From assembly GCF_013315695.1 (NCBI RefSeq), contig NZ_CP054353.1: a stretch of 64,000 nt of DNA; one strand, written 5' to 3'. Positions 4,323-43,165 of this stretch are shown here, piece after piece. Origin of the DNA: Escherichia coli. Lineage in GTDB: Bacteria; Pseudomonadota; Gammaproteobacteria; Enterobacterales; Enterobacteriaceae. The notes below the pieces were generated by a model. That model saw only the letters and a list, made by a program, of their open reading frames with translations, was not told the origin of the DNA and did not search any database. The translations under genes were made by a program, and so were the position numbers. Every line of letters starts with the position of its first letter. The stretch's first letter is position 1.

Positions 4323-4338
4323 AAAAAGCGCCCGCAGG
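4323..4338. repeat. attL core: 16-bp direct repeat aaaaagcgcccgcagg
   Basis: Identical 16-mer at 43150-43165 next to the serS terminator; brackets the prophage with integrase adjacent. Confidence 0.65.
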
Positions 4339-4427
4339 AGATTTAACACACCTTACTCCCCTTGATGATTTACTTATTTTTCAATGACTAAATCAAAACA
4401 AGGGGAGCAAATTAACGCAAATTACAA

Positions 4428-5420
4428 CTAGTCAATGGACAGTTTATGGACACTATCAGCCAGCGGATTAAAGCTAATCGCATCCTGTAAAAAGTCCGGT
4501 GAAAAATGCGCATACGTCATCGTTTGTTGAATCGTGGCGTGCCCAAGGATTCGCTGTAACGTAACGATATTTCCGCCGTTCATCATGAAATGCGTGGCGA
4601 ACGTGTGACGCATAACGTGAGTCGCCTGACCTTTGGGTAAATCCGGTTTCACCTCCTGAAGGATATCCCGAAAACGGATGTAATCAGCCTGGTACAATAG
4701 CCCGGTTTTTCGGGTTTTTATCAACGAAAGCACCGTATCAGAAACAGGAACCGCGCGGGATTTTCCATTCTTTGTGTTAAAGAACATTACGCGGTTACCA
4801 ACGATATGCTCACCACGTAAGCCAGCTGCTTCCCCCCACCTTGCGCCAGTGGAAAGACACAGAACAGCAACACGACGCGCATCCCCCTCGAGTCGTTCAA
4901 GCAGCCGATCAATCTCATCATCTGAAAGAAAGGCCATTTCTGTATTCCTGACCTTGAGCTTACGTATTCCACGCACCGGGTTTTCGTTATGGAAAACCTC
5001 CGCATCAATCAACGCAGTAAACATTGCAGACAAGGCGCACAAATCACGATTAACACTGGAGGGCATTAATCCGGCCTGTAATTTGTCTGAACGATACCCG
5101 AGCATAAACTTTCGCGTCATCTCACTGGCGCGGGGGTCCCTCATCTCACGGTTTATTTTTTCCAGCCTGACCCTGTAAGTATCCCCGTAAGGCTGATTCC
5201 GGCCATCAAGCACCCACCAGGCATCTATCAGTTCGGATAACCGACGCTGATCAGCTGGCTTGGCCTGCCACGGTTTATCGTGGAAATTCTGCAAAACATA
5301 CCTTTCAAACTCCTGTGCCTTTGACTTCAGGGTAAAAATCTTACGGATCCGCTTTCCTTCCGTCCCTTGCGGTCTTACATCAACCTTATAACGCCCGTCT
5401 TTGAGTTGCTTAATCGACAT
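4428..5420 (-). CDS. int: tyrosine integrase, P2 Int-like
   Basis: 330 aa from ATG with GGAGGGG RBS; strong similarity to P2 Int as recalled (LSTGARWGEAA, HxLRHTFATHF, GHATIQQTMTYAHF). Confidence 0.92.
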   Translation of the reverse strand: MSIKQLKDGRYKVDVRPQGTEGKRIRKIFTLKSKAQEFERYVLQNFHDKPWQAKPADQRRLSELIDAWWVLDGRNQPYGDTYRVRLEKINREMRDPRASEMTRKFMLGYRSDKLQAGLMPSSVNRDLCALSAMFTALIDAEVFHNENPVRGIRKLKVRNTEMAFLSDDEIDRLLERLEGDARRVAVLCLSTGARWGEAAGLRGEHIVGNRVMFFNTKNGKSRAVPVSDTVLSLIKTRKTGLLYQADYIRFRDILQEVKPDLPKGQATHVMRHTFATHFMMNGGNIVTLQRILGHATIQQTMTYAHFSPDFLQDAISFNPLADSVHKLSID

Positions 5421-5489
5421 GATTAGCCCCTCCAACGGATGAATCAGCCGTACACTCTCTACGGGATGAAACCCGCTCGATGTACAGCG

Positions 5490-5831
5490 TTAGCCAGCAT
5501 TGCGACGAGATCGGGGTGATTTTTGGGTAATGCCGATTGAAACCTGATCGCCCTCCGACTGAATGGAGCCATCAAGAGAGAGAGCCGGAGCTATCTGACC
5601 GGCAGCAGGCATTGTCTTATCTTTTATTAGCCACATCATGTATTTTTCAAACCGATCAACTTGGAGAACCATCTCAACAATTTTGGCTCTGGCGCTTTTT
5701 TGCCCTGATTCATAGTTCCTTATGGCAGCTAAAGACAACCCCGTAATATCCGCAAATTCCTTTTGCGTTAGCCCTTCAGCCTTGCGTATTTGACGTAGCT
5801 TTTTTGCATAGTCTATTGACAAGATAACCAT
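5490..5831 (-). CDS. immunity repressor, P2 C-like HTH protein
   Basis: HTH (LTQKEFADITGLSLAAIRNYESG) and C-terminal GQIAPAL motif resembling P2 C as recalled; divergent from the early operon. Confidence 0.75.
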   Translation of the reverse strand: MVILSIDYAKKLRQIRKAEGLTQKEFADITGLSLAAIRNYESGQKSARAKIVEMVLQVDRFEKYMMWLIKDKTMPAAGQIAPALSLDGSIQSEGDQVSIGITQKSPRSRRNAG

Positions 5832-5852
5832 TTGAGTATTAACCTCTCGCGA

Positions 5853-5874
5853 AAGATACTCGTGCGAGTATCTT
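5853..5874. promoter_or_regulatory. candidate operator: 22-bp palindrome aagatactcg-tg-cgagtatctt in the C/early-operon divergent region
   Basis: 10-bp perfect inverted arms between divergent repressor and early genes; a related half-site tgagtatt lies at 5833-5840. Confidence 0.45.
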
Positions 5875-5935
5875 TTATAAACCTAAACAAACCTTCATGA
5901 GGCGCGACAAGCGCACCAACGCAAGAGGATAGCAA

Positions 5936-6460
5936 ATGCGGAAGTCAATTGCCGATAAAGAGTTATCTGACACACAAGCCCTTCAGGAAAACGACAGCAT
6001 CACCGAATCCGTTGGCGCGGCAAACGACGATGAACACCAAGAGGAAAAGAAAAAACGCACCTACAAAAAAGGGGCAACCTTGCGACTAGATGGCCCGGTA
6101 GCCGGACTTTGCTCACTTGAAAAAGGGGCAGCCTATATCGGGTTGACAAAAGCTGCATTGCGCGTGGCGCTTCAGCGAAATCAGATGCCTGGACACAAGA
6201 CCCGTTCAAACCCTGAAGATGAAAATTCGGATGGCGTGTGGTGGTTTAACGCCAGAGAGTGGGACAAGCTGGCTGACGAACTACCAGAATGCGAGCCGCC
6301 AGAATGGCACAACTGGAAAAGCTACTGGACATACGACCGACAGAAAAGAAAGTTTTCCCCGGCAAACAAAGAAGACTGCCAGACCATCAATGGAAAGCGG
6401 GTTTACACAGGAAGAAAGTCAAAACTGGAGCAACACCAATACAGTGGAGGCAACCAGTGA
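5936..6460 (+). CDS. first early-operon gene, Cox/excisionase-position protein with putative HTH and long C-terminal extension
   Basis: ATG with AGAGGA RBS; occupies the cox position divergent from C; 174 aa is about twice P2 Cox. Confidence 0.5.
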   Translation: MRKSIADKELSDTQALQENDSITESVGAANDDEHQEEKKKRTYKKGATLRLDGPVAGLCSLEKGAAYIGLTKAALRVALQRNQMPGHKTRSNPEDENSDGVWWFNAREWDKLADELPECEPPEWHNWKSYWTYDRQKRKFSPANKEDCQTINGKRVYTGRKSKLEQHQYSGGNQ

Positions 6461-6544
6461 CATCAAAACAAACCGGCAACAGCGAAATCCCAGGAATGAG
6501 ATTTCGCCGCAGATGCTGTGGAAAATGGTTGTTATGCAAGCAGC

Positions 6545-6955
6545 CTACCAGGCTGATGGATGATCATCATCAATATCAAACACATTTCTGTAAAAACGAG
6601 AATGTTGCAAGGGATGAATAAGCGACCCCCAACAATCATAAATATCAGCCAGTTCGAACACATCGTATGAGAGATGTTGAGCAAACGATTCGGCACCTTC
6701 AAAAGACTCAAACACCTCATCATACAAGTGAATGTTTTCAGGATACGAAAGTGACAAGCAAAAACCAGACGTAGATTCCGTAACCAAGAAGACAAGGTGA
6801 TATTTATCATTCACCAGTGACTGAGCACATTTTTTTACAGAGCGAAGAATCACAGGGGAACGCGCGCCAATACGAAAGAGTTCTGCATGAGCACGGGCAT
6901 CAACAAAACTGTGAAACCCCTCACTTCTTGCAAGCTCACGTTCGGCAGCACGCAA
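6545..6955 (-). CDS. hypothetical protein on the strand opposite the early operon (only non-ATG start available)
   Basis: 136-codon frame fills an otherwise gene-free 540 bp; first codon is TTG and there is no in-frame ATG. Confidence 0.3.
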   Translation of the reverse strand: MRAAERELARSEGFHSFVDARAHAELFRIGARSPVILRSVKKCAQSLVNDKYHLVFLVTESTSGFCLSLSYPENIHLYDEVFESFEGAESFAQHLSYDVFELADIYDCWGSLIHPLQHSRFYRNVFDIDDDHPSAW

Positions 6956-7000
6956 AACCCAAAATCACCGCCCAGATTCGGATGTAAGGATAATTTTCAT

Positions 7001-7264
7001 ATGAATAAAGAGAAATCTCCGGATTATTTTGTGAAACGATTACAGGATGCAACAGAGTCAATGTTGATTGCCCTGAATAATTACTCTTACGAAGAGGCCG
7101 TAACGGTACTTGAGTGGATAAAGGAAAAAATAACGGAAGACAGCATCGTCAAGATGCAGAGTATCAACATCTCCCGTGACAAAACATTTCCACTGCGAAT
7201 ACCGCCAAAACGACGACTGGTTTACTCGATACCAGTCTCAATGCAGTGCAAATTGCCGAAATAG
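7001..7264 (+). CDS. early-operon hypothetical protein (87 aa)
   Basis: ATG at 7001 with AAGGA RBS; ORF-track frame 6887..7264 trimmed. Confidence 0.55.
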   Translation: MNKEKSPDYFVKRLQDATESMLIALNNYSYEEAVTVLEWIKEKITEDSIVKMQSINISRDKTFPLRIPPKRRLVYSIPVSMQCKLPK

Positions 7265-7416
7265 TTTATGAGAAAACATAAATACTCCTTTGTGTGGTTG
7301 GTTATCGTTACAACAGTTCGGGCAAGAATTGCAAGGCGTAACGAAATTACCACAAAACCATGCGCCGGGCATGGCTAAAAACCCGGCACAAATTCACAGC
7401 AGCAGTAGGGATTTTT

Positions 7417-7761
7417 ATGAAGAAACCGGGAAATTTTTCACAGCAGAATTTTCGAACAAGTGCCGAACGCCACGTTGCACGCCAGCACTTCCGCAAAAAT
7501 AGTGCGACCACAACCACTGAAATCCATGCCACACCAGACGGTCACCCGGTAAAACAAACCGGCAAGCACACCTGGACGATTGGCGACACTGGCATCGTTA
7601 TTCACAAAAGTTTTCGCAGCCCTGTTACTGGCAGATTTAATTTCACCCTGACTCGCGGGGATGATTACTTCGGACAGGACTTCACATTTTTTGAAGCCTT
7701 AAGAACGGCAGACAGATTAATCAGCGGCCTGCGTTTTCAATATCCGGGAAGCAAGCACTGA
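7417..7761 (+). CDS. early-operon hypothetical protein (114 aa)
   Basis: ATG at 7417 after AGGGA; ORF-track frame 7360..7761 trimmed. Confidence 0.55.
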   Translation: MKKPGNFSQQNFRTSAERHVARQHFRKNSATTTTEIHATPDGHPVKQTGKHTWTIGDTGIVIHKSFRSPVTGRFNFTLTRGDDYFGQDFTFFEALRTADRLISGLRFQYPGSKH

Positions 7762-7779
7762 TAAATAAAGGATTCAGCC

Positions 7780-8022
7780 ATGATCGAAGCCTACAAAATA
7801 CTTATCAATAACGCGTTGCAACGTTATCACTTTGAACTCGCAAACCGGGGCGTAACTAAGGATGAAAGCCTTCGTAACTCACTGCGCGGCGCAATTATGG
7901 GGCTATACAACTGCGCACTGGGCAGCGATGACCGTGAAGCGCTGGAAGAATTAAAGTCGATTATGACAGAACTGTTTGAAGGTGAAATTGTTGAGCCTTA
8001 CTTCACAGGGGTAGCCGCATGA
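7780..8022 (+). CDS. early-operon hypothetical protein (80 aa)
   Basis: ATG start; stop overlaps the next start (ATGA). Confidence 0.55.
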   Translation: MIEAYKILINNALQRYHFELANRGVTKDESLRNSLRGAIMGLYNCALGSDDREALEELKSIMTELFEGEIVEPYFTGVAA

Positions 8023-8144
8023 GCATATTTCTTTCATGGGTAATTCTGATTATCTCCGTGCTTATGGCAATCGGCATTATGCGAATTATCTACACACTGA
8101 AGGATATCGAATTATTCTTTACCGGCGATAAACGCCGTAAATAA
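8019..8144 (+). CDS. small hydrophobic peptide (41 aa, MSIFLSWVILIISVLMAIGIMRIIYTLKDIELFFTGDKRRK), one predicted TM helix
   Basis: Below the ORF-track cutoff; ATGA-coupled to the upstream gene; single TM segment with basic C-terminus. Confidence 0.45.
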   Translation: MSIFLSWVILIISVLMAIGIMRIIYTLKDIELFFTGDKRRK

Positions 8145-8156
8145 AGCGAAAACCTT

Positions 8157-9406: not shown

Positions 9407-10347
9407 GCAAAGAACTGTTATCCGGCACGCCGCTTAAATGGGTGGGCGGAAAAAGTCGCATCATGAACACACTGAAGGCGCATCTGCCAGAAGCAGACTG
9501 CCTGGTTGAGCCGTTTGTGGGTGGCGCATCGGTATTCATGAACACCAGTTACAAGCGTTACATCCTGGGTGATTCCAATGGTGCGCTGATTAATTTCTAC
9601 CGGCAAGCCAGGGACAACACCGACAGCCTGATCGACGAGGCGAAAACCCTGTTCCTGAACCACAACAACAGGGGTGACTATCTCATCATTCGCGAAACCT
9701 TTAACGCAGAGAATCATGCCTTCCTGAACAGCAGAACGGGAATAAGCGACCGCCGTGAACTGCGACTGGCCGCCATGTTTTTGTACCTGAACCGACACAG
9801 CTTTAACGGTTTGTTCCGCGTGAACGGAAAAGGCGATTTTAACGTGCCTTTCGGCTGCTACCGCAAGCCCTACTTCCCTGAGCGTGAAATCCGCGCATTT
9901 GCAGACAAGGCAAACAGCACCCGAACGCTGCTTATCCACGCAGATTTTAAGGATACGCTGAACTCTGCCAGTCACCTGTTCGGCATGGGCAACACGCTTT
10001 GCGTGTACTGCGATCCCCCTTACCTGCAATTCAGTGGCCGGGACAATTTTACCGCCTACGGAAAACCATTCGATGAAGACGAGCACGTTCGTCTGAGGGC
10101 AGCGCTCGACCGCCTTTCACAGGAAACGGGCGGCATGACCAGCATCACCATCTCCAATTCCGACACACCGGAAACACGACGCATTTATCGGGGTTACCGG
10201 ATGAACTGCATACAGGCACCACGAAGCGTTGGCGCAAGAACCCGGGAATCAGCACCGGAGGTTATCGCCACCCTGAGATGCATCACATCCGCCTTATCAA
10301 CGGTTCGCACTTCTGCGCCACGAACATGGAAGAAGTACGCGTGCTGA
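9403..10347 (+). CDS. dam: DNA adenine methyltransferase, Dam family
   Basis: PLKWVGGK, LVEPFVGGASVF, FLYLNRHSFNGLFR and DPPY motifs; about 35 extra C-terminal residues versus E. coli Dam. Confidence 0.85.
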   Translation: MSKELLSGTPLKWVGGKSRIMNTLKAHLPEADCLVEPFVGGASVFMNTSYKRYILGDSNGALINFYRQARDNTDSLIDEAKTLFLNHNNRGDYLIIRETFNAENHAFLNSRTGISDRRELRLAAMFLYLNRHSFNGLFRVNGKGDFNVPFGCYRKPYFPEREIRAFADKANSTRTLLIHADFKDTLNSASHLFGMGNTLCVYCDPPYLQFSGRDNFTAYGKPFDEDEHVRLRAALDRLSQETGGMTSITISNSDTPETRRIYRGYRMNCIQAPRSVGARTRESAPEVIATLRCITSALSTVRTSAPRTWKKYAC

Positions 10348-10375
10348 CAGCAACACGCAATACGGGAGGTAAAGC

Positions 10376-10726
10376 ATGGCAGTGATTTATATCGCCGGTC
10401 CCATGACCGGATGCAAAGACCACAACAGGACGGCATTTTGCGTGGAGGACCTGAAACTTCGGTGCGCCGGAAACATCGTTCTTAATCCTGCCGTACTGCC
10501 TGACGGATTAAGCCAGCAGCAGTACATGAGTATTTGTATTCCGATGCTCATGTGCGCCGATGCCATTTACTTACTGGATGGATGGGAAGAGTCCGCTGGC
10601 GCACGGGCTGAGTACGCAATGGCGCTCAAACTGAACATGCATGTGTCATTCCCGGAAAACCGGGCAGCCGGCGAAACCGTCGCGCAGCTGCTTCACAAAT
10701 CAAAAGCCGCACAGGCGACTGAGTAA
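10376..10726 (+). CDS. DUF4406 / nucleoside 2-deoxyribosyltransferase-like protein
   Basis: N-terminal MAVIYIAGPMTG signature and size typical of this fold (from memory); GGAGG RBS. Confidence 0.55.
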   Translation: MAVIYIAGPMTGCKDHNRTAFCVEDLKLRCAGNIVLNPAVLPDGLSQQQYMSICIPMLMCADAIYLLDGWEESAGARAEYAMALKLNMHVSFPENRAAGETVAQLLHKSKAAQATE

Positions 10727-11164
10727 CCGACCGGAGATCGAAACATGATTGCGCGCAGAGCTACCAACCGTCTCACAGGCTTTATTCCAGGCAAGGTTGA
10801 TCATGCACTCCATCACGGGGCTGTCACTTTCCTCAACAAAGGAGAGGCGCGCAATCATGCATTCCGGGGTGAGCATGTGGCGCTGGCTAATCAGTCTTTG
10901 ATAGCTAAGCGCCTGCCATTCAGCCTTTTCAGCTCTGATAGAAAGAGAGGAAGCCATGACCTGCCACACCAGAAAGAGCACCACACTGGCGAAAACAAAC
11001 GTTGCGCTGTCGCAAAAAATGAATGCGGCAACAATCGCAAGGAAAGCGCTAATCCTCAGAACCAAGGAAGCGCGACGGTGGAGAAGGCTTGTCATGTGTT
11101 CAAGCCAGTAGCTGTACCACAGGTCAAAAAGAATTTCGTAATCAGAAGGGAGCTTATCACTCAT
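10700..11164 (-). CDS. membrane protein (about 154 aa, two predicted TM helices) transcribed opposite to the early operon
   Basis: ATG at 11164; MSDKLPSDYEILFDLWYSYW, TM segments LVLRISAFLAIVAAFIF and FVFASVVLFLVWQVMASSL; 3' end overlaps the convergent DUF4406 gene. Confidence 0.5.
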   Translation of the reverse strand: MSDKLPSDYEILFDLWYSYWLEHMTSLLHRRASLVLRISAFLAIVAAFIFCDSATFVFASVVLFLVWQVMASSLSIRAEKAEWQALSYQRLISQRHMLTPECMIARLSFVEESDSPVMECMINLAWNKACETVGSSARNHVSISGRLLSRLCGF

Positions 11165-11347
11165 CAGAAACACCCCGCGTATGCAGACAATCACCAGTTG
11201 CCAGGTGATATTAATTCGCAACATTCTAACCACATCAGCACGCAACACAAAAACCGCTTGCCAGCGCTCGTCGTGTCAGGTTACATTTCCGCTGCACCTC
11301 ATAAAACGGGTGCCGGGTTTCGCAGCCTGCTGACAACCAAAGCGCAC

Positions 11348-11368
11348 AACCGCGCCAGCGGTTTTTTT
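11348..11368 (+). terminator. intrinsic terminator-like hairpin plus T-run (aaccgc-gcca-gcggtt-ttttt) in repeat copy 1
   Basis: 6-bp GC-rich stem followed by T7, nested in outer symmetry cgcacaa...ttgtgcg. Confidence 0.5.
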
Positions 11369-11547
11369 GTGCGTACTGTATTGCCACGTCTTTTTCGCGT
11401 CAGAATTATGGCGGGGCGTACGGGGCCGACTTCGGTCGGGCCGGGTTCTTTGCTAGCCGGTACTGCGAACCTCGTACGTCTCGCCACCCACAGTTTCGCA
11501 GCTCTGGATGGTGAGTTTTCACAACTTACTAGCAAAGAGGCCACACC

Positions 11548-11769
11548 ATGGCAAACCGCAAGCAACAGCGCGCCCGCGCTGAGCGTCTTCACATCCGCAG
11601 CGAAATCAACCGCAGACTTTTCCGCGCAACACGCGTCGCGCAAATCATGCATATCAACATGCTGCATGAGCGCACGCACGCACTATCAAACCGTTACTGC
11701 GCTGCTGTCTTCAGCTATCTCGCCGAAGATCTGGCAGAACTGCAAAGCCTCATCAACCAGCACCGATAA
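11548..11769 (+). CDS. small basic protein (73 aa, MANRKQQRARAERLHIRSEINRR...), repeat copy 1
   Basis: ATG with AAAGAGG RBS; identical copy at 12377-12598. Confidence 0.5.
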   Translation: MANRKQQRARAERLHIRSEINRRLFRATRVAQIMHINMLHERTHALSNRYCAAVFSYLAEDLAELQSLINQHR

Positions 11770-11837
11770 ACCACATCCGGAAGCTATCCCACACCTGCAC
11801 GCGGGAGGCTTCCGCACGTCTGTTACCGGAGGTTCTC

Positions 11838-12009
11838 ATGAAGAGCGTTAAGGGACTTTCAGATATTCAGGACTTCTTTAACTGGATGTGGGCGGTGGAT
11901 CCCCTGCTGGCTTCCCGCCTGAACAACTGGCACGACTATTACCGCCGCGCCTGTAAACAGGCTGCCCGCAGCGTCACCACATACGGGGCTTTCTCCTTCA
12001 CCGTTGACT
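11838..12009 (+). pseudogene. truncated 5' duplicate (about 57 codons) of the 138-aa gene, broken at the duplication junction
   Basis: Same RBS and first 57 codons as 12667-13083, then reads into repeat copy 2. Confidence 0.55.
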
Positions 12010-12176
12010 ATGCAGACAATCACCAGTTGCCAGGTGATATTAATTCGCAACATTCTAACCACATCAGCACGCAACACAAAAACCGCTTGCCAGCGCTCGT
12101 CGTGTCGGGTTACATTTCCGCTGCACCTCATAAAACGGGTGCCGGGTTTCGCAGCCTGCCGACTAGCAAAGCGCAC

Positions 12177-12197
12177 AACCGCGCCAGCGGTTTTTTT
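12177..12197 (+). terminator. same terminator-like hairpin in repeat copy 2
   Basis: Identical sequence at +829. Confidence 0.5.
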
Positions 12198-12376
12198 GTG
12201 CGTACTGTATTGCCACGTCTTTTTCGCGTCAGAATTATGGCGGGGCGTACGGGGCCGACTTCGGTCGGGCCGGGTTCTTTGCTAGCCGGTACTGCGAACC
12301 TCGTACGTCTCGCCACCCACAGTTTCGCAGCTCTGGATGGTGAGTTTTCACAACTTACTAGCAAAGAGGCCACACC

Positions 12377-25951: not shown

Positions 25952-27889
25952 ATGAGCAAAAAACATTTTGAGTTGATTACCGCCATGAGCCGTACGGAGC
26001 TGGCTGAGAAAGTTAACGAACGTCTGGCGCTGGGCTGGCAGCTTCAGGGCGACGCACAGGTTGCGTCAGAGCCGGGCGTGCCGTGGTATTTGATGCAGGC
26101 CATGACCGGTGATCAGCCCGTCACCGACGAGCCGCAAATTGCTGTGGATGACGAAGGGAACACAATCAACGAACCGGAATACTACTTCGTCATTGCTCTG
26201 GCCGGGCAATCCAACGGCATGGCGTATGGCGAAGGTCTGCCGCTGCCTGAGACATACGATCGCCCCGATCAGCGCATTAAGCAACTGGCACGCCGCAGTA
26301 CTGTCACGCCGGGTGGTGCGTCCTGTAATTACAACGACATTATTCCTGCGGACCACTGCCTGCATGATGTTCAGGATTTGAGTAAGTTTTCACACCCGAA
26401 AGCCAGCGCAGCTCAGTATGGATGCGTGGGGCAGGGATTACATATCGCGAAGAAATTGTTGCCGTTTATTCCGGCGAATGCGGGCATTCTTCTGGTTCCG
26501 TGCTGTCGTGGTGGATCTGCGTTTACTACAGGGGGTGATGGCGCTTTCAGTGAAACAACCGGTGCAACAGAAGCATCGTCTCGTTGGGGGGTCGATAAAC
26601 CGTTATACAAGGATCTACTCACCCGAACAAAAGCCGCACTGAAAACCAACCCTAAAAACATTCTGCTTGCAGTGGTCTGGATGCAGGGCGAGTTTGACTT
26701 AAAACAAACAACGGCATATTCCAACCAGCCAGCGGCGTTTGATGCCATGGTGGCAAAATACCGCTCCGATCTGGCGGGCGTATCAGGTCAGTGCGTTGGT
26801 GGCTCTTCATCATCAGTACCCTGGATTTGTGGTGATACAACTTATTACTGGAAAGAGACATATCCAACCGAGTACGGTGTTGTCTATGGCGCATACAAAA
26901 ACAAGCAGGCTAAAAACATCTTCTTTGTGCCGTTTATGACGGATGAAAACGGTCAGAATGTTGGCACCAACGAGCCAGATGAAGATCCTGATATCACTGA
27001 AATCGACTATTACGGTTCTGGATGGCGCAAAGATAAAACCACATGGACAACGGCAGATCGTAAAACTCACTTTGGCTCATGGGCACGTCGGGGAATTATT
27101 TCAGATCGTCTTGCTACAGCAATAATTGAGCATGCAGGTAAAACGGAAGCACTTGTTTATGGCAGGGTAACGCTCAGTAAAGAGGAAGAGCGCCCGGAAG
27201 AGGAAGATGAACCCATTGTAAAACCCACAGCTGAACAGTCAGTTATACTTTACGACGCTAAAAATGCCTCAGATACCAATTTACAGGCGCTGAACTGGGA
27301 GTTGAAGGATGTCACCCCCTCTCTGATTCAGGAGGGAAGTAATAAGGCGTTGCGTCTTGAGAAAAGCAACAGTGCGAAACCATGGTCATTACTTCATAGT
27401 ATTGCAGCCGAAAAATCAGGACAACTTCTGGAAAAAGGCGGAGAAATTTCCGTTCGCTTCAAAATACCTGAAAACACCTCTCTTGATACAGGAAAAAATA
27501 AGTATGTGTTAGGGCTGTACTGGAAAATAGCGGGATGGCCAGGTGATGGCGGAGAAGGCTATCTGAGTTCTTTTCTTGTTCAGACAGATAAAGCAAACCT
27601 GGATGTTGTTTACCATTACAACAGTAATCAACTGAAAGATATTGGTACATTTGATGAGTTTGATCATGACTGGCATACGCTCGCATTCAGGTTTGAAGGC
27701 GGTAACAGCCTCAGCGTTACACCGGTGCTCGATGGTAAAGATGGTCAGGCGTTTGATCTTGTTAAGTGGACTAATTCAGCTAATGAGGCCAATAAGTTTA
27801 TTTTGACCGATATTACTGGCACAGCTGAAACGTATCCTGTCCTTATTGAGACAATCGAAGTTAAAGCAAACCAGGCAGCAGCGAAATAA
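25952..27889 (+). CDS. sialate O-acetylesterase, NanS-p-like (SGNH/SASA domain with C-terminal lectin-like region)
   Basis: 645 aa; GQSN block (ALAGQSNGMAYGEG); size and domain order match prophage NanS-p esterases as recalled; inserted between lysis and tail genes. Confidence 0.7.
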   Translation: MSKKHFELITAMSRTELAEKVNERLALGWQLQGDAQVASEPGVPWYLMQAMTGDQPVTDEPQIAVDDEGNTINEPEYYFVIALAGQSNGMAYGEGLPLPETYDRPDQRIKQLARRSTVTPGGASCNYNDIIPADHCLHDVQDLSKFSHPKASAAQYGCVGQGLHIAKKLLPFIPANAGILLVPCCRGGSAFTTGGDGAFSETTGATEASSRWGVDKPLYKDLLTRTKAALKTNPKNILLAVVWMQGEFDLKQTTAYSNQPAAFDAMVAKYRSDLAGVSGQCVGGSSSSVPWICGDTTYYWKETYPTEYGVVYGAYKNKQAKNIFFVPFMTDENGQNVGTNEPDEDPDITEIDYYGSGWRKDKTTWTTADRKTHFGSWARRGIISDRLATAIIEHAGKTEALVYGRVTLSKEEERPEEEDEPIVKPTAEQSVILYDAKNASDTNLQALNWELKDVTPSLIQEGSNKALRLEKSNSAKPWSLLHSIAAEKSGQLLEKGGEISVRFKIPENTSLDTGKNKYVLGLYWKIAGWPGDGGEGYLSSFLVQTDKANLDVVYHYNSNQLKDIGTFDEFDHDWHTLAFRFEGGNSLSVTPVLDGKDGQAFDLVKWTNSANEANKFILTDITGTAETYPVLIETIEVKANQAAAK

Positions 27890-35410: not shown

Positions 35411-35887
35411 TTATCTTACCAGCGCCAGCGCAGAACTGATGCCGGACTTAATATTATTTGTCAGATCTCCCAGAGATGAAGACTGAAGACGTTCGCGGAG
35501 ATCTTCATTCACACGCTGAAAGGTCACCGTAAACTCAATCTTCCGCGCCTTGCCATAGCGATCAAGCTCTGAACGCGTGGTATTCAGAGCGGTAATAACG
35601 TACATACCGTAAATCTGCCCGACACCATCAATCAGCGGCCATGGACGTCCAGCATACGCCTGAGTTGTCAGCGCGGTAAGTGAGACTTCACCGCCTGTAA
35701 TTTCCGGGTAGAGAAGACCGGAAAGCGTGATGGTATCGTCACCCGCGCCGATATACTGCCAGCTGGCCGAGCGATTGATTCGCTCATTCTTCACGTGGCG
35801 CCAGTTACGGGACTGCTGTATTTGTTGGTGTGGCAGCGTGCTTAACTGAAAAACAAACATGCCGTAAATCATCATCATAATCACCAC
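35411..35887 (-). CDS. tail protein, P2 gpU-like
   Basis: About 155 aa; last gene of the FI-FII-E-T-U order; exact start among several Met codons unresolved. Confidence 0.75.
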   Translation of the reverse strand: MVIMMMIYGMFVFQLSTLPHQQIQQSRNWRHVKNERINRSASWQYIGAGDDTITLSGLLYPEITGGEVSLTALTTQAYAGRPWPLIDGVGQIYGMYVITALNTTRSELDRYGKARKIEFTVTFQRVNEDLRERLQSSSLGDLTNNIKSGISSALALVR

Positions 35888-35889
35888 TC

Positions 35890-38748
35890 CTAATCACGAT
35901 CGCGGAAGCTGTTCATCCCGGCGGATTGTCTGCGAATTTCTTCCCGTACAGCCTCCCCCACCATTCTGGCAAGGTCGCGCGGGTTCTGCGTCGCCACGTT
36001 GTGAAGATGAACGTGGATTTCCCCACCGAACACAGACGACGGTTCAGGAGAGCGCGAAGCCTCCCGGGTAGCCGGGGAGACTGGCGCCCACTGCTTAACC
36101 TCCACGGAACGGGAAGCATCCCGGGAGACCTCCGGAGGCACAGGCGAAACCGGAGGCATAACCGGTAGTCCTGGCGCAACAGTCGGCTCATTCCACTGCC
36201 CGCGAACAGCCAGCGCACGGGGGAGGTTTTTAAACACGATATCGCCGGGACCGATACGCTTGCGGGCTTCATGAAGCATGCCCGACGTATTACCCTCGAT
36301 ACCTTTAAGCCTGCGAAGAACGGCGCTGTTACCGCTGGTTATGCCGGGGGGATTGCTGGTTTTACCGTCATTCTGTGGATTACCATTCCCGTTGTTATTA
36401 TTGCTGACAGGAGCGGCCGGAGTGGGTACCCAGGACTTCTGAACCATTTTTTTCTGAACAGGGTCCCACTCCCACATAACCGGAGCCTTTGCAACTGCCT
36501 CAGCACGATTTTTCGCCCGCTCAACTTCAGAAGGGAGCACGCCGAGTTTTTCCAGCACCCATGCCAGGCCGTCCATCAACGCCTGAAGAGGAGTAAGCGC
36601 AAGCGATATCGCCCCGCTGAGCACGCGACCAAAAGTTTCCCCGACCGAGGCACACCGTTCAAGAGATTCATGGCTGGTCTGAACAGGTGTGAGTAACCGC
36701 CTGAACCAGTCATACACCGTGGACACCGCACCCGATACCAGATCAAACAGCGGCGCAAACTGAGCAACACCTTCACGAACAGGCGCAAGGCCAGCCCACA
36801 GCGCCCGGAATGTTCCGAGCATAAAAGCCTTAACCTGTTCCCAGTGACGCCATATGAGCAGCGCTCCACCGGCAAGGGCAGCAACCACGAGACCAACAGG
36901 ACTGAGAAGACCGGCAAGCGCCCCGCCCAGCACTGAAACCGCACCGGATACCATCCCCCACAGTGCCGGAAGGCCAGACAGGCGAAGGGCAAGACCACCA
37001 ACGCCAGTTGCAACAGAGGAAAACCCGCCACCAAGAAGCGCAGAGCCAAGCTGAAGTTTTGCAAAAATACCGGTCAGCACCCCGGAGGTCAGGGACAACG
37101 CCCCAAGGGCTGTCGTGGCCGCAAGAACACCACCGGCAACAATCGCCAGAGTACGCACCAGTTGCGGATTATCCTGAACCCATCCTCTGAGCCGTTCACC
37201 CCATGATACCGCTACCTGAACAAGTTCGCGGAGGTCATCGGTGACAAGGGCAACGACATCACTGCGTATACCGGAGAAGACACCAGACAGGCGATCGGCA
37301 TCACCGCCAAGGTTATCCCGCAGAACATCACCCATACGCCGGGCGGTTCCCTGCACCTGCCCCATACGGTCAGACACCGTTGCCAGCGAGCGGAGAAAAT
37401 CCGGGATCTGATCAACGGCCAGATCTTCGATGGGTGTGCCGAACAGCGCTATCGCCGCATTGGCTCGTTCCGCAGGATCCTGAATCTTCAGCAGCCCGGC
37501 AGCCGTTCGCTGCATTGCCTCGCGAGCAGCCGCGCCTCCGCTGGCAATCGCTGACAACATTTTTTCCGCATTAAGGCCAATCAGCCCATAAGCCTCAACG
37601 CTTGCTTTGGACATATCCGAGCCACGAATACTGAATTCCTTGACGGCATCGCCGGTTTTATCCAGGGCGAATTTCCCCTGCTGCGCCATGCTGACAAGCA
37701 GCGTCATGGTTTCAGAGCCGGAGAGCCCCATATTGCGGAAATGCGTGGAATACTCATGCAGAATTTCAGGAAGTTCGCCGCGCATTTCGGCGGACATTTT
37801 CTGCATGCCTGCCGCCATCAGGTCCACGGCCTCACCTGCATTTGCAGCGAGACCGTTTTTCAGCATGATGCCGGCCGCCTGAACCTGTTCAGCCACATTA
37901 CCGCCGGTGACCTGAGCAAGATCGATTGCCTGCCGTGTCACCCTCTCTAGTTCTTCAGTCCCTACAGTACCCAGTGCGCCAAGCGTGCTTTGCGCCGCAG
38001 CTGCCGCTTCGGAAATCATCGCGATATCCGTAGCCGCACCTGACGCACGGATGTTCTGAATCATACGGCTGTAGCGCTGGCCGTCTTCTGCGCTGCCTCC
38101 ACTCTGTGCCGCAATGAGCGCACCCTGCCGTTGCTCTTCAACAACAGGTGCAACCGCACGTCCGGCGGCGTACAGACCAGCACTGCCCGCTGCCATGGCA
38201 AGCGCACCGCGCTGGCTGAGTTTACCGGCGATATCCTGAACACGATCGTAACGTTGTTGTGCCTGCGTGACGCGCGCAAGCTGAGCCTGCTGGCGCTCAA
38301 GCTGATCGTTGTATTCCTGCGTTCGCCTGATTGCTTCTTCAGTGGTGCGGTTACTTCCGTCCGCCCGTATACCGTGAGACTCCAGCTCACGACCGGCTTC
38401 CCGTAGCCGGGACTGGTGAAGGGCGTAAACGGTATTAAGACGCTCAATCTTTGCAGTCAGTGAGCGGATAGCTTCCTGCTGTTTTTCCGTCAGTGTCGTG
38501 CCAGTACGCTGGACCTCCAGGAGGCGCTGAAGTCGCCCACGCGCCTCGTTCAGGCTGTTTTCAGTCGAGGCAACCTGCTGACGGGCACGGGAAAACGCAT
38601 CACTGCTTCGCTGGAGTGACTTAAGAGCGTTCTGCGTGGAGGAAAGAGATTCGGAAAGCGCGCCGGTCATTTCCCGGGCGCGCCTGACGGGTTGGGTGAG
38701 ACGGTCGACCGCAGTGAGGGCTACACGTATCTGGAGATTATTACTCAT
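35890..38748 (-). CDS. tail tape measure protein, P2 gpT-like
   Basis: 952 aa from ATG (MSNNLQIRV); Ala/Gly-rich helical protein; ORF-track frame extends to 38802. Confidence 0.85.
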   Translation of the reverse strand: MSNNLQIRVALTAVDRLTQPVRRAREMTGALSESLSSTQNALKSLQRSSDAFSRARQQVASTENSLNEARGRLQRLLEVQRTGTTLTEKQQEAIRSLTAKIERLNTVYALHQSRLREAGRELESHGIRADGSNRTTEEAIRRTQEYNDQLERQQAQLARVTQAQQRYDRVQDIAGKLSQRGALAMAAGSAGLYAAGRAVAPVVEEQRQGALIAAQSGGSAEDGQRYSRMIQNIRASGAATDIAMISEAAAAAQSTLGALGTVGTEELERVTRQAIDLAQVTGGNVAEQVQAAGIMLKNGLAANAGEAVDLMAAGMQKMSAEMRGELPEILHEYSTHFRNMGLSGSETMTLLVSMAQQGKFALDKTGDAVKEFSIRGSDMSKASVEAYGLIGLNAEKMLSAIASGGAAAREAMQRTAAGLLKIQDPAERANAAIALFGTPIEDLAVDQIPDFLRSLATVSDRMGQVQGTARRMGDVLRDNLGGDADRLSGVFSGIRSDVVALVTDDLRELVQVAVSWGERLRGWVQDNPQLVRTLAIVAGGVLAATTALGALSLTSGVLTGIFAKLQLGSALLGGGFSSVATGVGGLALRLSGLPALWGMVSGAVSVLGGALAGLLSPVGLVVAALAGGALLIWRHWEQVKAFMLGTFRALWAGLAPVREGVAQFAPLFDLVSGAVSTVYDWFRRLLTPVQTSHESLERCASVGETFGRVLSGAISLALTPLQALMDGLAWVLEKLGVLPSEVERAKNRAEAVAKAPVMWEWDPVQKKMVQKSWVPTPAAPVSNNNNGNGNPQNDGKTSNPPGITSGNSAVLRRLKGIEGNTSGMLHEARKRIGPGDIVFKNLPRALAVRGQWNEPTVAPGLPVMPPVSPVPPEVSRDASRSVEVKQWAPVSPATREASRSPEPSSVFGGEIHVHLHNVATQNPRDLARMVGEAVREEIRRQSAGMNSFRDRD

Positions 38749-39288
38749 CGTTATGATTCCCGGATCTGGCAGCCGCCCGCTCTCGCCAGGCAACAACCTC
38801 ACCAGGACTCATACCGAATATCTCTGCGGGCGACCAGTTAAAGACAACAGCGATATCAGCGACAAGCTCTTCGATATCGTCAAACAGGAGACGAATTACA
38901 TCACACCTGTATTCGTCTTTTTCTTGCCGGGCAAGGCCTTCGGCGAGAAAAAATACGTTGCCGCCGTGGAAAGCGCCCCGAAATCCTCCGTGCGCATGGT
39001 CGACAGTTCCGCTTCAGTAAGGCGGGGCTCTGTAACACGGCTGAGATAAACGCACATCGCGTTAAAGTTCAGGCTGTACAGGTGAGCCAGAGACAGACCA
39101 CGCAGTGAACCACTCTGACGGGCACGTTCGCCAATCTTCACATGTGTAATAACCTGTTCACCACGGACAACCGGAACGGTTAACTCAATGGGCTCACCGT
39201 TATAGGCAACCTCATTACCATCAGCAACATCAAAGTTGTCGACGTTATCAGCACCGGCAACCAGTACTTCGTTTTGTTTTTTTGACAT
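38741..39288 (-). CDS. predicted E+E' -1 frameshift product of the tail chaperone
   Basis: The -1 frame from the TTTTTTC site (plus 38947-38953) stays open to a TAA that overlaps the tape-measure ATG (ATGAGTAA). Confidence 0.5.
38896..39288 (-). CDS. tail assembly chaperone, P2 gpE-like (frame 0 product)
   Basis: 130 aa; lies between tail tube and tape measure; contains slippery heptamer T TTT TTC. Confidence 0.7.
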   Translation of the reverse strand: MSKKQNEVLVAGADNVDNFDVADGNEVAYNGEPIELTVPVVRGEQVITHVKIGERARQSGSLRGLSLAHLYSLNFNAMCVYLSRVTEPRLTEAELSTMRTEDFGALSTAATYFFSPKALPGKKKTNTGVM

Positions 39289-39333
39289 TGTGAAATTCTC
39301 CTGGCGGCCACACGACCGCCGTCAGTCAGTTAA

Positions 39334-39846
39334 TCAGCCAAGTCCCAGCATGGAGCGGGTGCGATCAGGCAGCACATCCTTGCCATCAACGCGCCAGATG
39401 AAGTTCAGCACGTCGATTTCAATAACATCGCTGTTATCAACGCTGAGCTTGTACCAGGTGCATTTCATCGCGTAGGTGTGTTCGGTATCTTCACCCTGTT
39501 TGGCCTCGCCCTTGTCGATTTCGACAATGCGACCACGGGCTTCAATATCGACGTACTCAATCCCTTCTTCGGAATAGTATTCACCCGAGAAGCGCACGCG
39601 TACCGCATCAATGCCAGCGGCATATTTGGCAAAGATGTGACGATCCATACCGCCAACCGCAAAGGAGAGATCCAGCGCACCATCATCAAGACCGAGATCC
39701 ACCGCCGCAGAGCCTGGCATACCCGCACCACGATATGCTTCCGTCTTGCGGGTCAGTTTCGGTGGGGTGAAGGAGGTCACCTTACCCAGTTTGTTGTCAC
39801 CGTCCACAAAGACGGTAAACACACGAAGTTTTTTTGGTACGGCCAT
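39334..39846 (-). CDS. tail tube protein, P2 gpFII-like
   Basis: 170 aa directly after the sheath gene. Confidence 0.82.
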   Translation of the reverse strand: MAVPKKLRVFTVFVDGDNKLGKVTSFTPPKLTRKTEAYRGAGMPGSAAVDLGLDDGALDLSFAVGGMDRHIFAKYAAGIDAVRVRFSGEYYSEEGIEYVDIEARGRIVEIDKGEAKQGEDTEHTYAMKCTWYKLSVDNSDVIEIDVLNFIWRVDGKDVLPDRTRSMLGLG

Positions 39847-41039
39847 CAGCTACCTCCCAGAGATGCAAAAGCAGAGCCAAAGAACTCGTCGGTAAACGTC
39901 TGATAGAGTTCCATGCATTCCATCGGTGGTACGGGCGTGTATTTGTAGCGAATGCGCACAATGCCCTGACGAAGACTGGTCGTGTTGTTGTCGACAATAT
40001 CGAACCAGCATTCCGCCCCAATGAGTTTTCCGGCCGTGACCAGGGAATCCAGTTTCGCCTTGATGGCACTTACTGCATCTTTCGCATTGGAAGGTGTCAG
40101 AGGCGAATCCACCACCTGAAGCTGCGCCTCTGCGATACTGTCAGCCAGTTGTTGCGCCGTGCGGGTGTACACCTCAAAGATATACTCCGCTGTTTCCGGC
40201 GTACGGTTCCCCCAGAAACGGAAGGAGCCGTCACCCTGGTGAATAATCGTGGTCACCTCACTGCTGTTCAGCGTGTTGGCATCGCTGTTTTCATCCTGAA
40301 GCGACCAGGAAACCGACGCAGAGATCCCGAGAACATTCTTCACAGGGATGTTTGAAAGAGAGCGATGCCAGCCCTGTTCGTGGTCGATTCGGGCACGAAG
40401 ACCGCACGCATACGCCGCAGCCGGGAAAGTTTCACTTTTACCGGACACGGGGTTGAACGCCGTGAAATCAGGCCACAGGAGCATGATTTCACGCCCGGAA
40501 ATCTTTTTGCGGAATGCAATGGCATCGGACGGTTTTGTGCATGCCGGACAGCCGGAATACGCAAAAGCTCGCATTTTGCCCGCAATCGTCACCAGTGCCG
40601 CCGTAACGGCATCGGACTCAAGACCGGGCGCTGCCAGGATACGCGGACGACAGCCAATCCCCTCCATCTGTTCAGCGACCAGAAGGGCCTGCATCCCCGT
40701 GTAACTGCCATCAGACTCCACAGTACCAATAACAAGCTGGTCCTGTGTCTTCTGGTCTTCCGCCTCCTTCGCTTCGGCAACACGCACGACGATAACGCGC
40801 GTGCTGACCTGATCGGAGATAGCCTTAAGGGATTTGTAGAGCGTCCCCTTTGTGCCAGCCTTACCCAGAACATTATTGACTCGTGTTAACAGCACCGGCG
40901 TGTCAAGCGGGAACTGCTCTTCGTCAGCATCATCTGCAACAGCAATAAGCCCAATGACGCTGGAATCAACGTCATTAATTGCCGTCACCAGATCGGTGTT
41001 TTCCCTGACGCGCACACCGTGAAATCGTGTTTCAGCCAT
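39846..41039 (-). CDS. tail sheath protein, P2 gpFI-like
   Basis: 397 aa; similarity to recalled P2 FI (WPDF, GLRARIDHEQGWH, FRFWGNRT, YTRTAQ). Confidence 0.88.
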   Translation of the reverse strand: MAETRFHGVRVRENTDLVTAINDVDSSVIGLIAVADDADEEQFPLDTPVLLTRVNNVLGKAGTKGTLYKSLKAISDQVSTRVIVVRVAEAKEAEDQKTQDQLVIGTVESDGSYTGMQALLVAEQMEGIGCRPRILAAPGLESDAVTAALVTIAGKMRAFAYSGCPACTKPSDAIAFRKKISGREIMLLWPDFTAFNPVSGKSETFPAAAYACGLRARIDHEQGWHRSLSNIPVKNVLGISASVSWSLQDENSDANTLNSSEVTTIIHQGDGSFRFWGNRTPETAEYIFEVYTRTAQQLADSIAEAQLQVVDSPLTPSNAKDAVSAIKAKLDSLVTAGKLIGAECWFDIVDNNTTSLRQGIVRIRYKYTPVPPMECMELYQTFTDEFFGSAFASLGGS

Positions 41040-41114
41040 ACGATTCACCATCAGTTGTGTTTATGTTCGCCGGAATCATCCATGACTGGCGCGCAGATCT
41101 CACGCGTTGGGGGG

Positions 41115-41132
41115 TGTGAGGGGGTTCTTACA
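41115..41132. promoter_or_regulatory. Ogr-type late promoter element TGT-N12-ACA (tgtgagggggttcttaca)
   Basis: Dyad between divergent FI and D; shares GTTCTTACAAC with 20888-20905. Confidence 0.6.
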
Positions 41133-41191
41133 ACAGAACCGAACGGAAACGACCGGAACTGCGTGGGATGATACGTATACGGGAGGGCTGC

Positions 41192-42337
41192 ATGAACATC
41201 ACTGAATCACTGACACTTCACATCAACAGTGCACTGGATACCGCAGAAGACACAGTGCGGGTACCGGATTTCAGTATCACACTGGAAGGGCGGGATGCCA
41301 GCCTGAAAAACATCACGCAGCGCATCATGCGTCTCACCATGACAGACAACAGGGGATTTGAGGCCGACAGGGTGACACTGGAAATCGACGACGCTGACGG
41401 TGAGGTGGTTCTTCCGGAACGCGGCACCCGATTATCGCTGACCATGGGATGGAAAGGGGGAAGCCTGACAAACAAAGGGACGTTTGTTGTGGATGAAGTG
41501 GCGCACGACGGACCACCGGATAAGCTCACCATCTCCGCGAACAGCGCGGATTTTCGCGAAGAGTTTAACGTGAAACGCGAAGTCTCCTGGCATGACGTGA
41601 CGGTGGAGCGCGTGGTGTCTGCCATTGCCCACCGTTACGGACTGAAGGCACAAATCAGCGAGATGTTGATGGATATTGAAATCGACCATGCAGACCAGAC
41701 AGAGGAAAGTGATATGTCATTCCTCACTCGCATGGCCGACATGCTGGGTGCAATAGCCACCGTAAAAAACGGGTGTCTGCTGTTCATTCTGCCGGGAGGC
41801 GGCGTCACCGCCAGCGGTCGCGCCCTCCCCTCATTCGCCCTGACCCGCTCTGACGGAGACGGCCACCGCTTTCGCATTGCTGACAGAAACGCCTATACCG
41901 GAGTGAAGGCCCACTGGCTGGATTTAAAGTTCGGTCAGAAGAAGGCCGTGAACGTGAAAAAGCGAAACGCGCAAACCACGAAGAAGCCGGAGAAAAGCAG
42001 TGCGCGGGAAGGTGGTTACATGGAAGGCGCAGAGGGTAACGTGTATGTACTGAGAAAAACCTACCCGAACGAAGAAGCCGCGCGTCGTGCAGCTGCCGCA
42101 CGCTGGCAGCAACTTCAGCGGGGCGCAGCGGAATTCAGTATCACGCTGGCGCGCGGACGTGCTGACCTGTATCCGGAGATGCACGGCACGGTATCCGGAT
42201 TCAAGAGCGACATTGACAACCAGGACTGGATTATTTCGCGCATTGAGCACGTCATCGACGACAGCGGCTTCACCACCAGACTGGAGCTGGAAGCAAAAAT
42301 CGCAGACTGGATAGCAGAGAGTAACACGACTGGCTAG
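41192..42337 (+). CDS. tail protein / late control gene D, P2 gpD-like
   Basis: 381 aa from ATG with GGGAGGG RBS; adjacent to ogr. Confidence 0.82.
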   Translation: MNITESLTLHINSALDTAEDTVRVPDFSITLEGRDASLKNITQRIMRLTMTDNRGFEADRVTLEIDDADGEVVLPERGTRLSLTMGWKGGSLTNKGTFVVDEVAHDGPPDKLTISANSADFREEFNVKREVSWHDVTVERVVSAIAHRYGLKAQISEMLMDIEIDHADQTEESDMSFLTRMADMLGAIATVKNGCLLFILPGGGVTASGRALPSFALTRSDGDGHRFRIADRNAYTGVKAHWLDLKFGQKKAVNVKKRNAQTTKKPEKSSAREGGYMEGAEGNVYVLRKTYPNEEAARRAAAARWQQLQRGAAEFSITLARGRADLYPEMHGTVSGFKSDIDNQDWIISRIEHVIDDSGFTTRLELEAKIADWIAESNTTG

Positions 42338-42378
42338 AATGAGCGCGAGCCCACCCCGTTTCAGCCAGGGGGACCATC

Positions 42379-42681
42379 ATGCATCCTTGCCCATACTGCG
42401 GAGCAAGCACCCGCACCAGAACAAGCCGCAACGCCAACGACACAGGAACAATCAGGGAGAAATACTATCAGTGCAACAACATTGAATGCAGCGCAACCTT
42501 TGTGACGCACGAGTTTGTCGTGAGAACCGTATGCCGTCCGCAACCCACCGAAGAACGGGGAATCATCCCCACAGACGCTTTCAAATCATGCCACCGGGGA
42601 AGGGAACAACTCAGCCTCCCCCTGGGCGATTGCTCCTCCCAGTCAAAAACTGTACATTACGCGCGGGTGCCTTTCGGCTGA
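42379..42681 (+). CDS. ogr: late transcription activator Ogr (zinc finger)
   Basis: MHPCPYCGAS...YYQCNNIECSATF: CxxC-N22-CxxxxC motif; N-terminal 70 aa resemble P2 Ogr as recalled. Confidence 0.8.
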   Translation: MHPCPYCGASTRTRTSRNANDTGTIREKYYQCNNIECSATFVTHEFVVRTVCRPQPTEERGIIPTDAFKSCHRGREQLSLPLGDCSSQSKTVHYARVPFG

Positions 42682-42812
42682 CGGCTGGAAGGATTACCTG
42701 AAGGCCGGATGTGGAAAGGCCCCGAGTCAAACATATTGTTTAACCCGAGGCCCTAACCATCCAACCGTGACAAGTGGAAGGTTAGCGCCTCTTTGAAAAA
42801 GGAGCAAGCGCT

Positions 42813-42953
42813 ATGCCGCAAAAAACGATCATCGTGAGCATTTTATGCTTAACCATGTTGTTGACCGTCTGGATGATACACCGTTCGCCGTGTGAATTCA
42901 GACTTAACATCATGTGGTCAGAATTTGCGGCGTTCTTGCAGTGTAAACCGTAA
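42813..42953 (+). CDS. Hok/Gef-family type I toxin peptide, HokA-like (46 aa)
   Basis: Below ORF-track cutoff; AAGGAG RBS; MPQKTIIVSILCLTMLLTVWMIHRSPCEFRLNIMWSEFAAFLQCKP resembles E. coli HokA as recalled (MPQK..., WMI, LCE, AAFL.CK). Confidence 0.65.
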   Translation: MPQKTIIVSILCLTMLLTVWMIHRSPCEFRLNIMWSEFAAFLQCKP

Positions 42954-42962
42954 GAAACCGCA

Positions 42963-42995
42963 GCGGGGGTGAAAGCCCCCGCTATCCGGTTGTTA
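42963..42995 (+). terminator. hairpin after the hok-like gene (gcggggg-tgaaa-gcccccgc)
   Basis: 7-bp GC stem 10 bp after the stop. Confidence 0.5.
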
Positions 42996-43047
42996 AAGGT
43001 TCAGTCGAAAGTCGCACCCTTGCATGCAAGTCACAAAGAAAAAACAA

Positions 43048-43080
43048 AGCCCGTAGCGTAAAAACTGCGGGCTTTTTTGT
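43048..43080. terminator. bidirectional terminator hairpin (agcccg...cgggct with flanking A/T runs)
   Basis: Stem-loop with T6 downstream and A-run upstream. Confidence 0.55.
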
Positions 43081-43149
43081 TTCAAAGATGGACGTTATAT
43101 GGACACCTGAAAATAAATTCCTTTTATTTTCAATTAATTAACATAATGC

Positions 43150-43165
43150 AAAAAGCGCCCGCAGG
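43150..43165. repeat. attR core: 16-bp direct repeat aaaaagcgcccgcagg, part of the serS terminator hairpin
   Basis: Identical to 4323-4338; continues as gcgcccgcaggcgc hairpin plus T-run on the serS strand. Confidence 0.65.

Follow-up and report, generated by a model that had tools for sequence, protein, structure and literature searches.

Phages of the P2-like family carry integrases in which the arm-binding and catalytic domains are conserved and the core-binding domain varies, each lineage having a bacterial attachment site (attB) of its own, and P2-type integrases tend toward intergenic sites, as set out by Nilsson and Haggard-Ljungquist (2011, Bacteriophage 1:207; PMC3448106). Table 1 of that paper places P2 locI at MG1655 position 2,165,238; on the same coordinates the paper gives attB of WPhi at 4,104,392 and that of PhiD145 at 950,293, and it assigns the 186-type integrators (186, Fels-2 and SopEPhi) to tRNA-Ile or ssrA. 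Also listed in Table 1, with its own integration site, is prophage PhiECO5 of strain UTI89 (NC_007946, 911187-948481). The subject of this study is a P2-family prophage in a 64,000-nt stretch of Escherichia coli DNA (NZ_CP054353.1, assembly GCF_013315695.1; this whole stretch is hereafter called the window), which lies between serS and dmsA and is bounded by two identical 16-mers. With a probability of about 0.9, we interpret the 16-mers as the left and right attachment sites (attL and attR) formed when the phage integrase (Int) recombined the phage attachment site (attP) with the bidirectional terminator hairpin between the two genes.

The UTI89 record identifies PhiECO5 as a serS-dmsA prophage whose ends, at the published coordinates, lie midway within the core as defined in the window, and the site had therefore already been catalogued. 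A full-text literature search for prophages at serS-dmsA returned nothing relevant, and it was Table 1 of PMC3448106 that led to the site. Strain HS carries its PhiECO1 at rcdA-ybjL, which ruled this prophage out as another occupant. PhiECO5 and the window prophage share attB, orientation, the order of int, the C-like repressor gene and the cox-like gene, and the presence of hok and ogr at the right end, and their integrases are 88% identical, whereas their structural genes have diverged. The PhiECO5 core matches attB over 20 bp, with the hairpin present at both attL and attR and a serS U-tract of 3, while the core of the window prophage matches over 16 bp, with the hairpin at attR only and a U-tract of 5. 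The window prophage is a further occupant of a known site with a shorter core match than PhiECO5, and in this respect it is ordinary. The overlap of terminator and FNR box and the 8-bp intersection of core sequences described below were not found in the literature text searched, and are an incremental addition.

Junctions, empty site and reconstructed attP

The 16-mer AAAAAGCGCCCGCAGG has exactly two exact copies in the window on the + strand. Comparison of their flanks with empty sites places the copy at 4323-4338 (attL) between dmsA on its left and the phage int side on its right, and the copy at 43150-43165 (attR) between the phage right end on its left and serS on its right. When up to two mismatches were allowed, three matches were seen against a shuffle mean of 0.09, and none of 100 shuffles reached three; the third, near match is the reverse complement within the same hairpin. 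Identity between the copies ends at 16 bp, the preceding base being A in the left copy and C in the right one, and beyond the 16-mer downstream four of six bases agree (AGATTT at attL, CGCTTT at attR). dmsA (dimethyl sulfoxide reductase subunit A, 814 aa) occupies 1684-4128 and serS (serine-tRNA ligase, 430 aa) 43194-44486, both on the - strand according to the list of open reading frames (ORFs) and to RefSeq annotation (for serS, that of a near-identical genome), and the window therefore runs opposite to the K-12 orientation.

To obtain the unoccupied state, an empty site was built in silico by placing one core between the 600 bp to the left of the prophage and the 600 bp to its right. It matched E. 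coli MS 21-1 with 100% identity across 1200 bp. Of 5426 complete E. coli genomes, 5076 carried it without interruption, the annotation always being serS / dmsA. Both K-12 and MS 21-1 have a single 16-mer at serS-dmsA, in the context ...GGGAGACAA-AAAAAGCGCCCGCAGG-CGCTTTTTAGATTC... (attB junction sequence GAGACAAAAAAAGCGCCCGCAGGCGCTTTTTAG). Occupied sites were recognized by an attL-type junction with a related integrase in 343 genomes and by an attR-type junction in 346, so that about 345 complete genomes (~6%) hold a related prophage here, and the empty and occupied states together cover essentially all complete E. coli genomes examined; an attL of the same kind is present in the type strain of E. 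albertii. The exact match to the empty site and the recurrent junctions indicate that the junctions are exact and that the site has been used repeatedly. P2-type attachment sites have, as seen here, a core shared by attL and attR of which unoccupied chromosomes hold one copy, and the proposal of the sequence-only reading that identical 16-mers bound the prophage as its duplicated att core was upheld by the two exact copies, by the shuffles and by the comparison with prophage-free strains that it had called for. The practical value lies in annotation, since exact prophage boundaries are now fixed for a site at which ~6% of complete E. coli genomes hold a prophage. The host flanks themselves (3739-4338 and 43166-43765) share 100% identity with MS 21-1 but only ~96-97.7% with most E. 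coli, 32 records being at or above 99%, which places the window in a less common lineage containing both lysogens and non-lysogens.

The int gene (4428-5420, - strand; Pfam Int_N and Phage_integrase) is transcribed toward attL and dmsA, and its product is 52% identical to P2 Int by BLASTP (E = 2e-134) and 55-56% identical by tblastn. The catalytic residues R, H-x-x-R, H and Y align with those of P2 Int, these columns being invariant in the alignment, and identity to the integrases of other serS-dmsA prophages is 87-94%. As in P2, int points toward the att site, downstream of a C-like immunity repressor gene (5490-5831, - strand; helix-turn-helix, Pfam HTH_3) and divergent from a cox-like gene (5936-6460, + strand), the orthologues of which at this position are annotated as Cox family; the encoded Cox-like excision/switch protein has 174 aa, compared with 91 aa for P2 Cox.

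Joining the right end of the prophage to its left end gave a reconstructed attP, ...CATAATGC-AAAAAGCGCCCGCAGG-AGATTTAAC... (junction sequence CATAATGCAAAAAGCGCCCGCAGGAGATTTAAC), which aligns part by part with the experimentally annotated attP of P2 (NC_001895). The order common to both runs from the ogr terminator through the P arm repeats, the integration host factor (IHF) site, putative in the window prophage, and the core to the P' repeats overlapping the 3' end of int. In the window prophage, the terminator ending the D-ogr-hok unit was found by terminator scan at 43046-43075 (+) and is by alignment the counterpart of the P2 ogr/F-operon terminator. The P arm-type Int sites at 43088-43105 (+), ATGGAC at 43088 followed 11 bp further by ATGGACA at 43099, align with the annotated P2 P arm, and the putative IHF-site homologue between P arm and core (43111-43143, +) aligns with the annotated P2 IHF site and includes TTTCAATTAATTA at 43128-43140, with one mismatch to the IHF consensus WATCAANNNNTTR. 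On the other side, the P' arm-type sites at 4435-4452 (+), two copies of ATGGACA 11 bp apart (4435 and 4446), both within the 3' end of int, correspond in the alignment to the annotated P' arm of P2, in which the similar site TGTGGACA occurs twice. The two direct repeats on each side of the core fit the P2-type arm consensus tgTGGaCa reported in PMC3448106, and the arms lie about 62 and 109 bp from the core, compared with 63 and 114 bp in P2. Both phages have GGAGATTT to the P' side of their core.

The cores themselves are different. The P2 core is the 27-bp AAAAAATAAGCCCGTGTAAGGGAGATT and that of the window prophage is AAAAAGCGCCCGCAGG, with only AAAAA, GCCCG and GGAGATTT shared in the core region; together with the serS-dmsA locus, this agrees with the earlier suspicion that the site is not the classical P2 one. 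At the level of sequence, the recombination module of the prophage is of the P2 type and has been retargeted to another attB, the same principle as in WPhi, PhiD145, 186, Fels-2 and SopEPhi. Those phages have their targets elsewhere, whereas the target of the window prophage is the terminator of a protein-coding gene, which may double as the 3' end of a small RNA (sRNA).

The terminator hairpin, the probable crossover region and dmsA

Terminator scanning and RNA folding located the intrinsic terminator of serS at 43150-43173 (- strand) as a bidirectional hairpin, AAAAAGCGCC-CGCA-GGCGCTTTTT, rebuilt at attR. Read on the serS strand in the scan, it begins 20 nt past the serS stop codon (43194-43196) and has 11 pairs and a 4-nt loop. 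In the empty site of K-12 the hairpin is intact (-16.3 kcal/mol) and followed by a U-tract of 7; at attR of the window it is again intact (-17.2 kcal/mol, z-score -3.1), the U-tract having been shortened by integration from 7 to 5, and at attL it is broken (z-score 0.6). Judged by predicted hairpin and U-tract, the serS terminator is kept at attR, and the two similar folding energies bear out the sequence-only reading in that the right copy is part of this terminator and regenerates it. In UTI89 the hairpin is intact at both attR (U-tract of 3) and attL (U-tract of 7), and in O22:H8 strain 154 it is weakened at attR (z-score -0.8). As the hairpin is intact in some lineages and weakened in strain 154, retention of the terminator is a property of the attP of the window lineage and not of the site as a whole.

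Comparison of these lineages also narrowed the probable position of strand exchange. Identity to attB extends over 20 bp in UTI89 (AAAGCGCCCGCAGGCGCTTT), 16 bp in the window prophage, 15 bp in ECCNB12-2 (AAAAGCGCCCGCAGG) and 8 bp in strain 154, where attR reads ...AAAACCA-CCCGCAGG-CGCTTTTT and attL reads ...AAAAAGCG-CCCGCAGG-AGGTTT; a strain-154-type attR junction was found in three further unrelated strains. The only block common to attP and attB in every variant lineage is CCCGCAGG, present at 4331-4338 in the attL copy and at 43158-43165 in the attR copy, where it consists of the loop CGCA and, on either side of it, 2 bp of the stem. Since all identity blocks intersect here, both strand exchanges probably take place within or at the edges of these 8 bp, and tyrosine recombinases are expected to have overlap regions of this length. 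The 16 bp are, on this sequence comparison, the extent of identity in the window phage and not the functional crossover. The series of attP cores (20, 16, 15 and 8 bp) thereby narrows probable strand exchange to the loop of the terminator hairpin without experiment, and it illustrates why integrases favour dyad-symmetric targets.

A mechanism can be proposed on this basis. The stem arms AAAAAGCG and CGCTTTTT, which repeat each other perfectly in inverted orientation, lend themselves to the role of the two core-type half-sites of Int and would act as such. The asymmetric centre CCCGCAGG would serve as the overlap for both strand exchanges, and its asymmetry would set the orientation that places int next to dmsA; int adjoins dmsA in every lysogen read, and an asymmetric hairpin loop fits this constant orientation. 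From attP would come the P2-type accessory sites, namely two ATGGACA arm repeats per side and, on the P arm, a putative IHF site; the cox-like gene at 5936-6460 suggests excision control of the Cox type, with no Cox-binding sites identified in attP. The reconstructed attP of the window phage matches attB over the 16 bp from the core toward the serS-distal side, and the full hairpin is therefore rebuilt only at attR, where the serS terminator is kept, leaving the attL hairpin broken.

A consequence for dmsA may follow. The box TTGATACCGAACAA at 4299-4312 (- strand), with one mismatch to the FNR consensus, is the FNR box of the class II dmsA promoter, and its position and the literature suggest that it is the functional one. 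For dmsABC, FNR is centred at -41.5 (PMC3688515, Table 1). With this spacing the transcription start of dmsA would be at about 4264, and the left edge of the core (4323) lies at about -59. Only 10 bp separate it from the FNR box, and its distance from the dmsA start codon (ATG, 4128) is 195 bp, not the approximately 130 bp from dmsA given previously. Because the core is duplicated, native dmsA promoter sequence runs to about -74 and the promoter elements are retained. The terminator that insulated dmsA on its upstream side has nevertheless been replaced by the 3' end of the co-directional int. A scan of the window found no terminator-like site downstream of the int stop codon as far as the dmsA promoter. 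With the attL hairpin lost and no other terminator there, int would no longer be insulated from dmsA. In P2 lysogens, int is co-transcribed with C.

The sequence-only reading took dmsA regulation to be left intact; the possible effect on dmsABC insulation is speculative. A bolder proposal, which we consider a long shot, is that one hairpin has three roles, as serS terminator, as dmsA insulator and as 3' end of the putative sRNA STnc130, such that the type of attP core alone rewires host anaerobic respiration. Depending on core type, the hairpin is rebuilt at both junctions (20 bp), at attR only (16 bp) or at neither in full (8 bp). If the proposal were true, lysogen lineages would differ in dmsABC expression through read-through from the phage C-int operon, and also in serS 3'-end formation and in STnc130 termination, the latter read-through being antisense to int.

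Alternative origins of the repeats

STnc130 also raises a different view of the target. The true target of the phage might be the 3' end of this sRNA gene, antisense to dmsA and serS, with the serS terminator incidental, as in the strategy of phages that use tRNA or tmRNA genes. The Rfam family STnc130 (RF02084), a putative enterobacterial sRNA, has a + strand match that spans the entire interval between serS and dmsA (4219-4353 at attL), well above its gathering score (140 bits in K-12, 126 bits at attL); the terminal hairpin of the model is the att hairpin, broken at attL of the window. In UTI89, PhiECO5 supplies CGCTTT and thus rebuilds the hairpin at attL, as integrators into tRNA genes do. 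However, the hairpin is not rebuilt at attL in the window, ECCNB12-2 and strain-154 lineages, so that preservation of the sRNA is no general feature, and the conservation of the intergenic region is already accounted for by the dmsA promoter and the serS terminator. STnc130 is listed as a putative Salmonella sRNA next to dmsA (PMC3632133), no E. coli expression data for it were found, and the promoter scan gave no + strand promoter in 4000-4600. We therefore consider an sRNA target unlikely.

Another possibility is that the att sites are genuine and the prophage is now fixed and non-excising, the repeats being relics. P2-type phages are classically not SOS-inducible, which agrees with this view, and no attP junction was found in any collection searched (IMG/VR, JGI metagenomes and sequenced phages). 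On the other hand, int, the C-like repressor gene, the cox-like gene, the replication endonuclease gene and all structural genes are intact in a 99.8%-identical RefSeq prophage, only lysC being flagged as partial; both cores are perfect; and the clean empty site of a strain whose flanks are 100% identical is in keeping with a recent gain or loss. A permanently fixed prophage seems improbable to us.

The searches for free attP were made in several ways. Besides the exact junction, a lineage-independent pattern combining TTTATTTTCA, a conserved P-arm motif, with 25 unspecified bases and CCCGCAGGMGVTTTAAC gave no match in IMG/VR or in the metagenomes, and a synthetic 438-bp attP compared by BLAST with 50,697 phage records gave half-matches only and no intact attP. 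A looser pattern in IMG/VR recovered attL-type prophage ends (loci L024, L028 and L033) and unrelated matches. PV468777, ON470599 and ON470623, the phage records nearest to the early region, contained no attP or attR. They are prophage predictions with boundaries running through attL into dmsABC, and PV468777 continues ~15 kb further into the host genes pflAB, focA, serC and aroA; that these three records overrun attL is of value for annotation. The absence of attP from the IMG/VR, JGI and phage collections is no evidence against excision.

Integration by Int at the hairpin remains our preferred explanation, and the points that weigh against it are the following. The exact attP junction had no match in IMG/VR or in JGI metagenome contigs, and the attP sequence and present-day excision are inferred from attL and attR only. 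The Phage_Cox match of the cox-like product is weak, at 25.3 bits slightly under the Pfam cutoff of 27.5. Finally, an overlap of 8 bp presupposes identical cutting positions for all the variant integrases, which share 87-94% identity.

A transposition-type target-site duplication, or a chance repeat with the true junctions elsewhere, can be dismissed as extremely improbable: a single copy in empty sites is equally expected under target-site duplication, but the length of duplicated identity varies among related elements at the site (20, 16, 15 and 8 bp) where a fixed length would be expected, the phage flanks carry diverged near-copies of the attB arms (AGATTT for CGCTTT, AAAACCA for AAAAGCG) and the element therefore brings its own core, a tyrosine integrase and a P2-type attP adjoin the repeats, and chance predicts only ~0.09 matches while the empty-site reconstruction is exact to the base.

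Prophage content and neighbouring features

The body of the prophage (4339-43149; 38,811 bp) belongs to the P2 family (Peduoviridae), as judged from the annotation of the 99.8%-identical prophage of E. coli MSB1_4I. That nearest record matches the greater part of the prophage and diverges from it in patches at 5665-5885 and 10273-12008; its RefSeq annotation includes an integrase, a helix-turn-helix (C-like) repressor, a cox-like gene, a replication endonuclease, portal, terminase and P2-family capsid genes, tail and baseplate genes, D, ogr and a Hok/Gef toxin. The element between the repeats is a complete P2-family prophage, for which Pfam also supports Ogr_Delta and HOK_GEF. Among sequenced phages, the best nucleotide identity of the structural genes is about 71%, and prophage records of ST131 strains share 85% identity with the early region.

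The gene for the Hok/Gef type I toxin (42813-42953, + strand) stands at the right end just inside attR; related lysogens have one to three hok copies in tandem, three being present in O22:H8 strain 154 (locus L007, 33614-34699). In the early region, Rfam matches at gathering level indicated an isrK-like Hfq-binding sRNA with a C4 antisense RNA behind it, the pair being present twice in tandem at a distance of 829 bp (11294-11491 and 12123-12320, + strand), compared with a single copy in UTI89. The duplication overlaps the MSB1_4I-divergent patch at 10273-12008, and the pair looks like an antirepressor-control module in the style of P1 and P7, duplicated in the window prophage.

A 645-aa ORF (25952-27889, + strand) with DUF1737, a SASA sialate O-acetylesterase-like domain and DUF6645 sits between the lysis and tail-completion genes in a patch of low G+C content (0.44). 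It is probably cargo, possibly for surface-glycan modification; PADLOC gave no hit for it and detected no known defence system among five accessory ORFs. The tail sheath, tube, E, tape-measure and U genes (35411-41051, - strand) are opposite to D and ogr (41168-42681, + strand), an arrangement seen also in UTI89 and ECCNB12-2 and different from P2, in which the F operon is co-linear. At the same att site, the prophage L007 (NZ_CP067426, 3534900-3570300) has the same int/C-like repressor/cox-like and replication module but a different tail module, with DUF2586, baseplate J/gp47 and a tail-collar fibre, which suggests that the integration module moves between mosaic backbones.

Outside the prophage, a single CRISPR-DR4 repeat (58291-58318, - strand; 50 bits) was detected between clpA and a tRNA-Ser gene (58101-58188). 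The clpA-infA interval is the seat of E. coli type I-F CRISPR arrays and their remnants, and the repeat is presumably an orphan.

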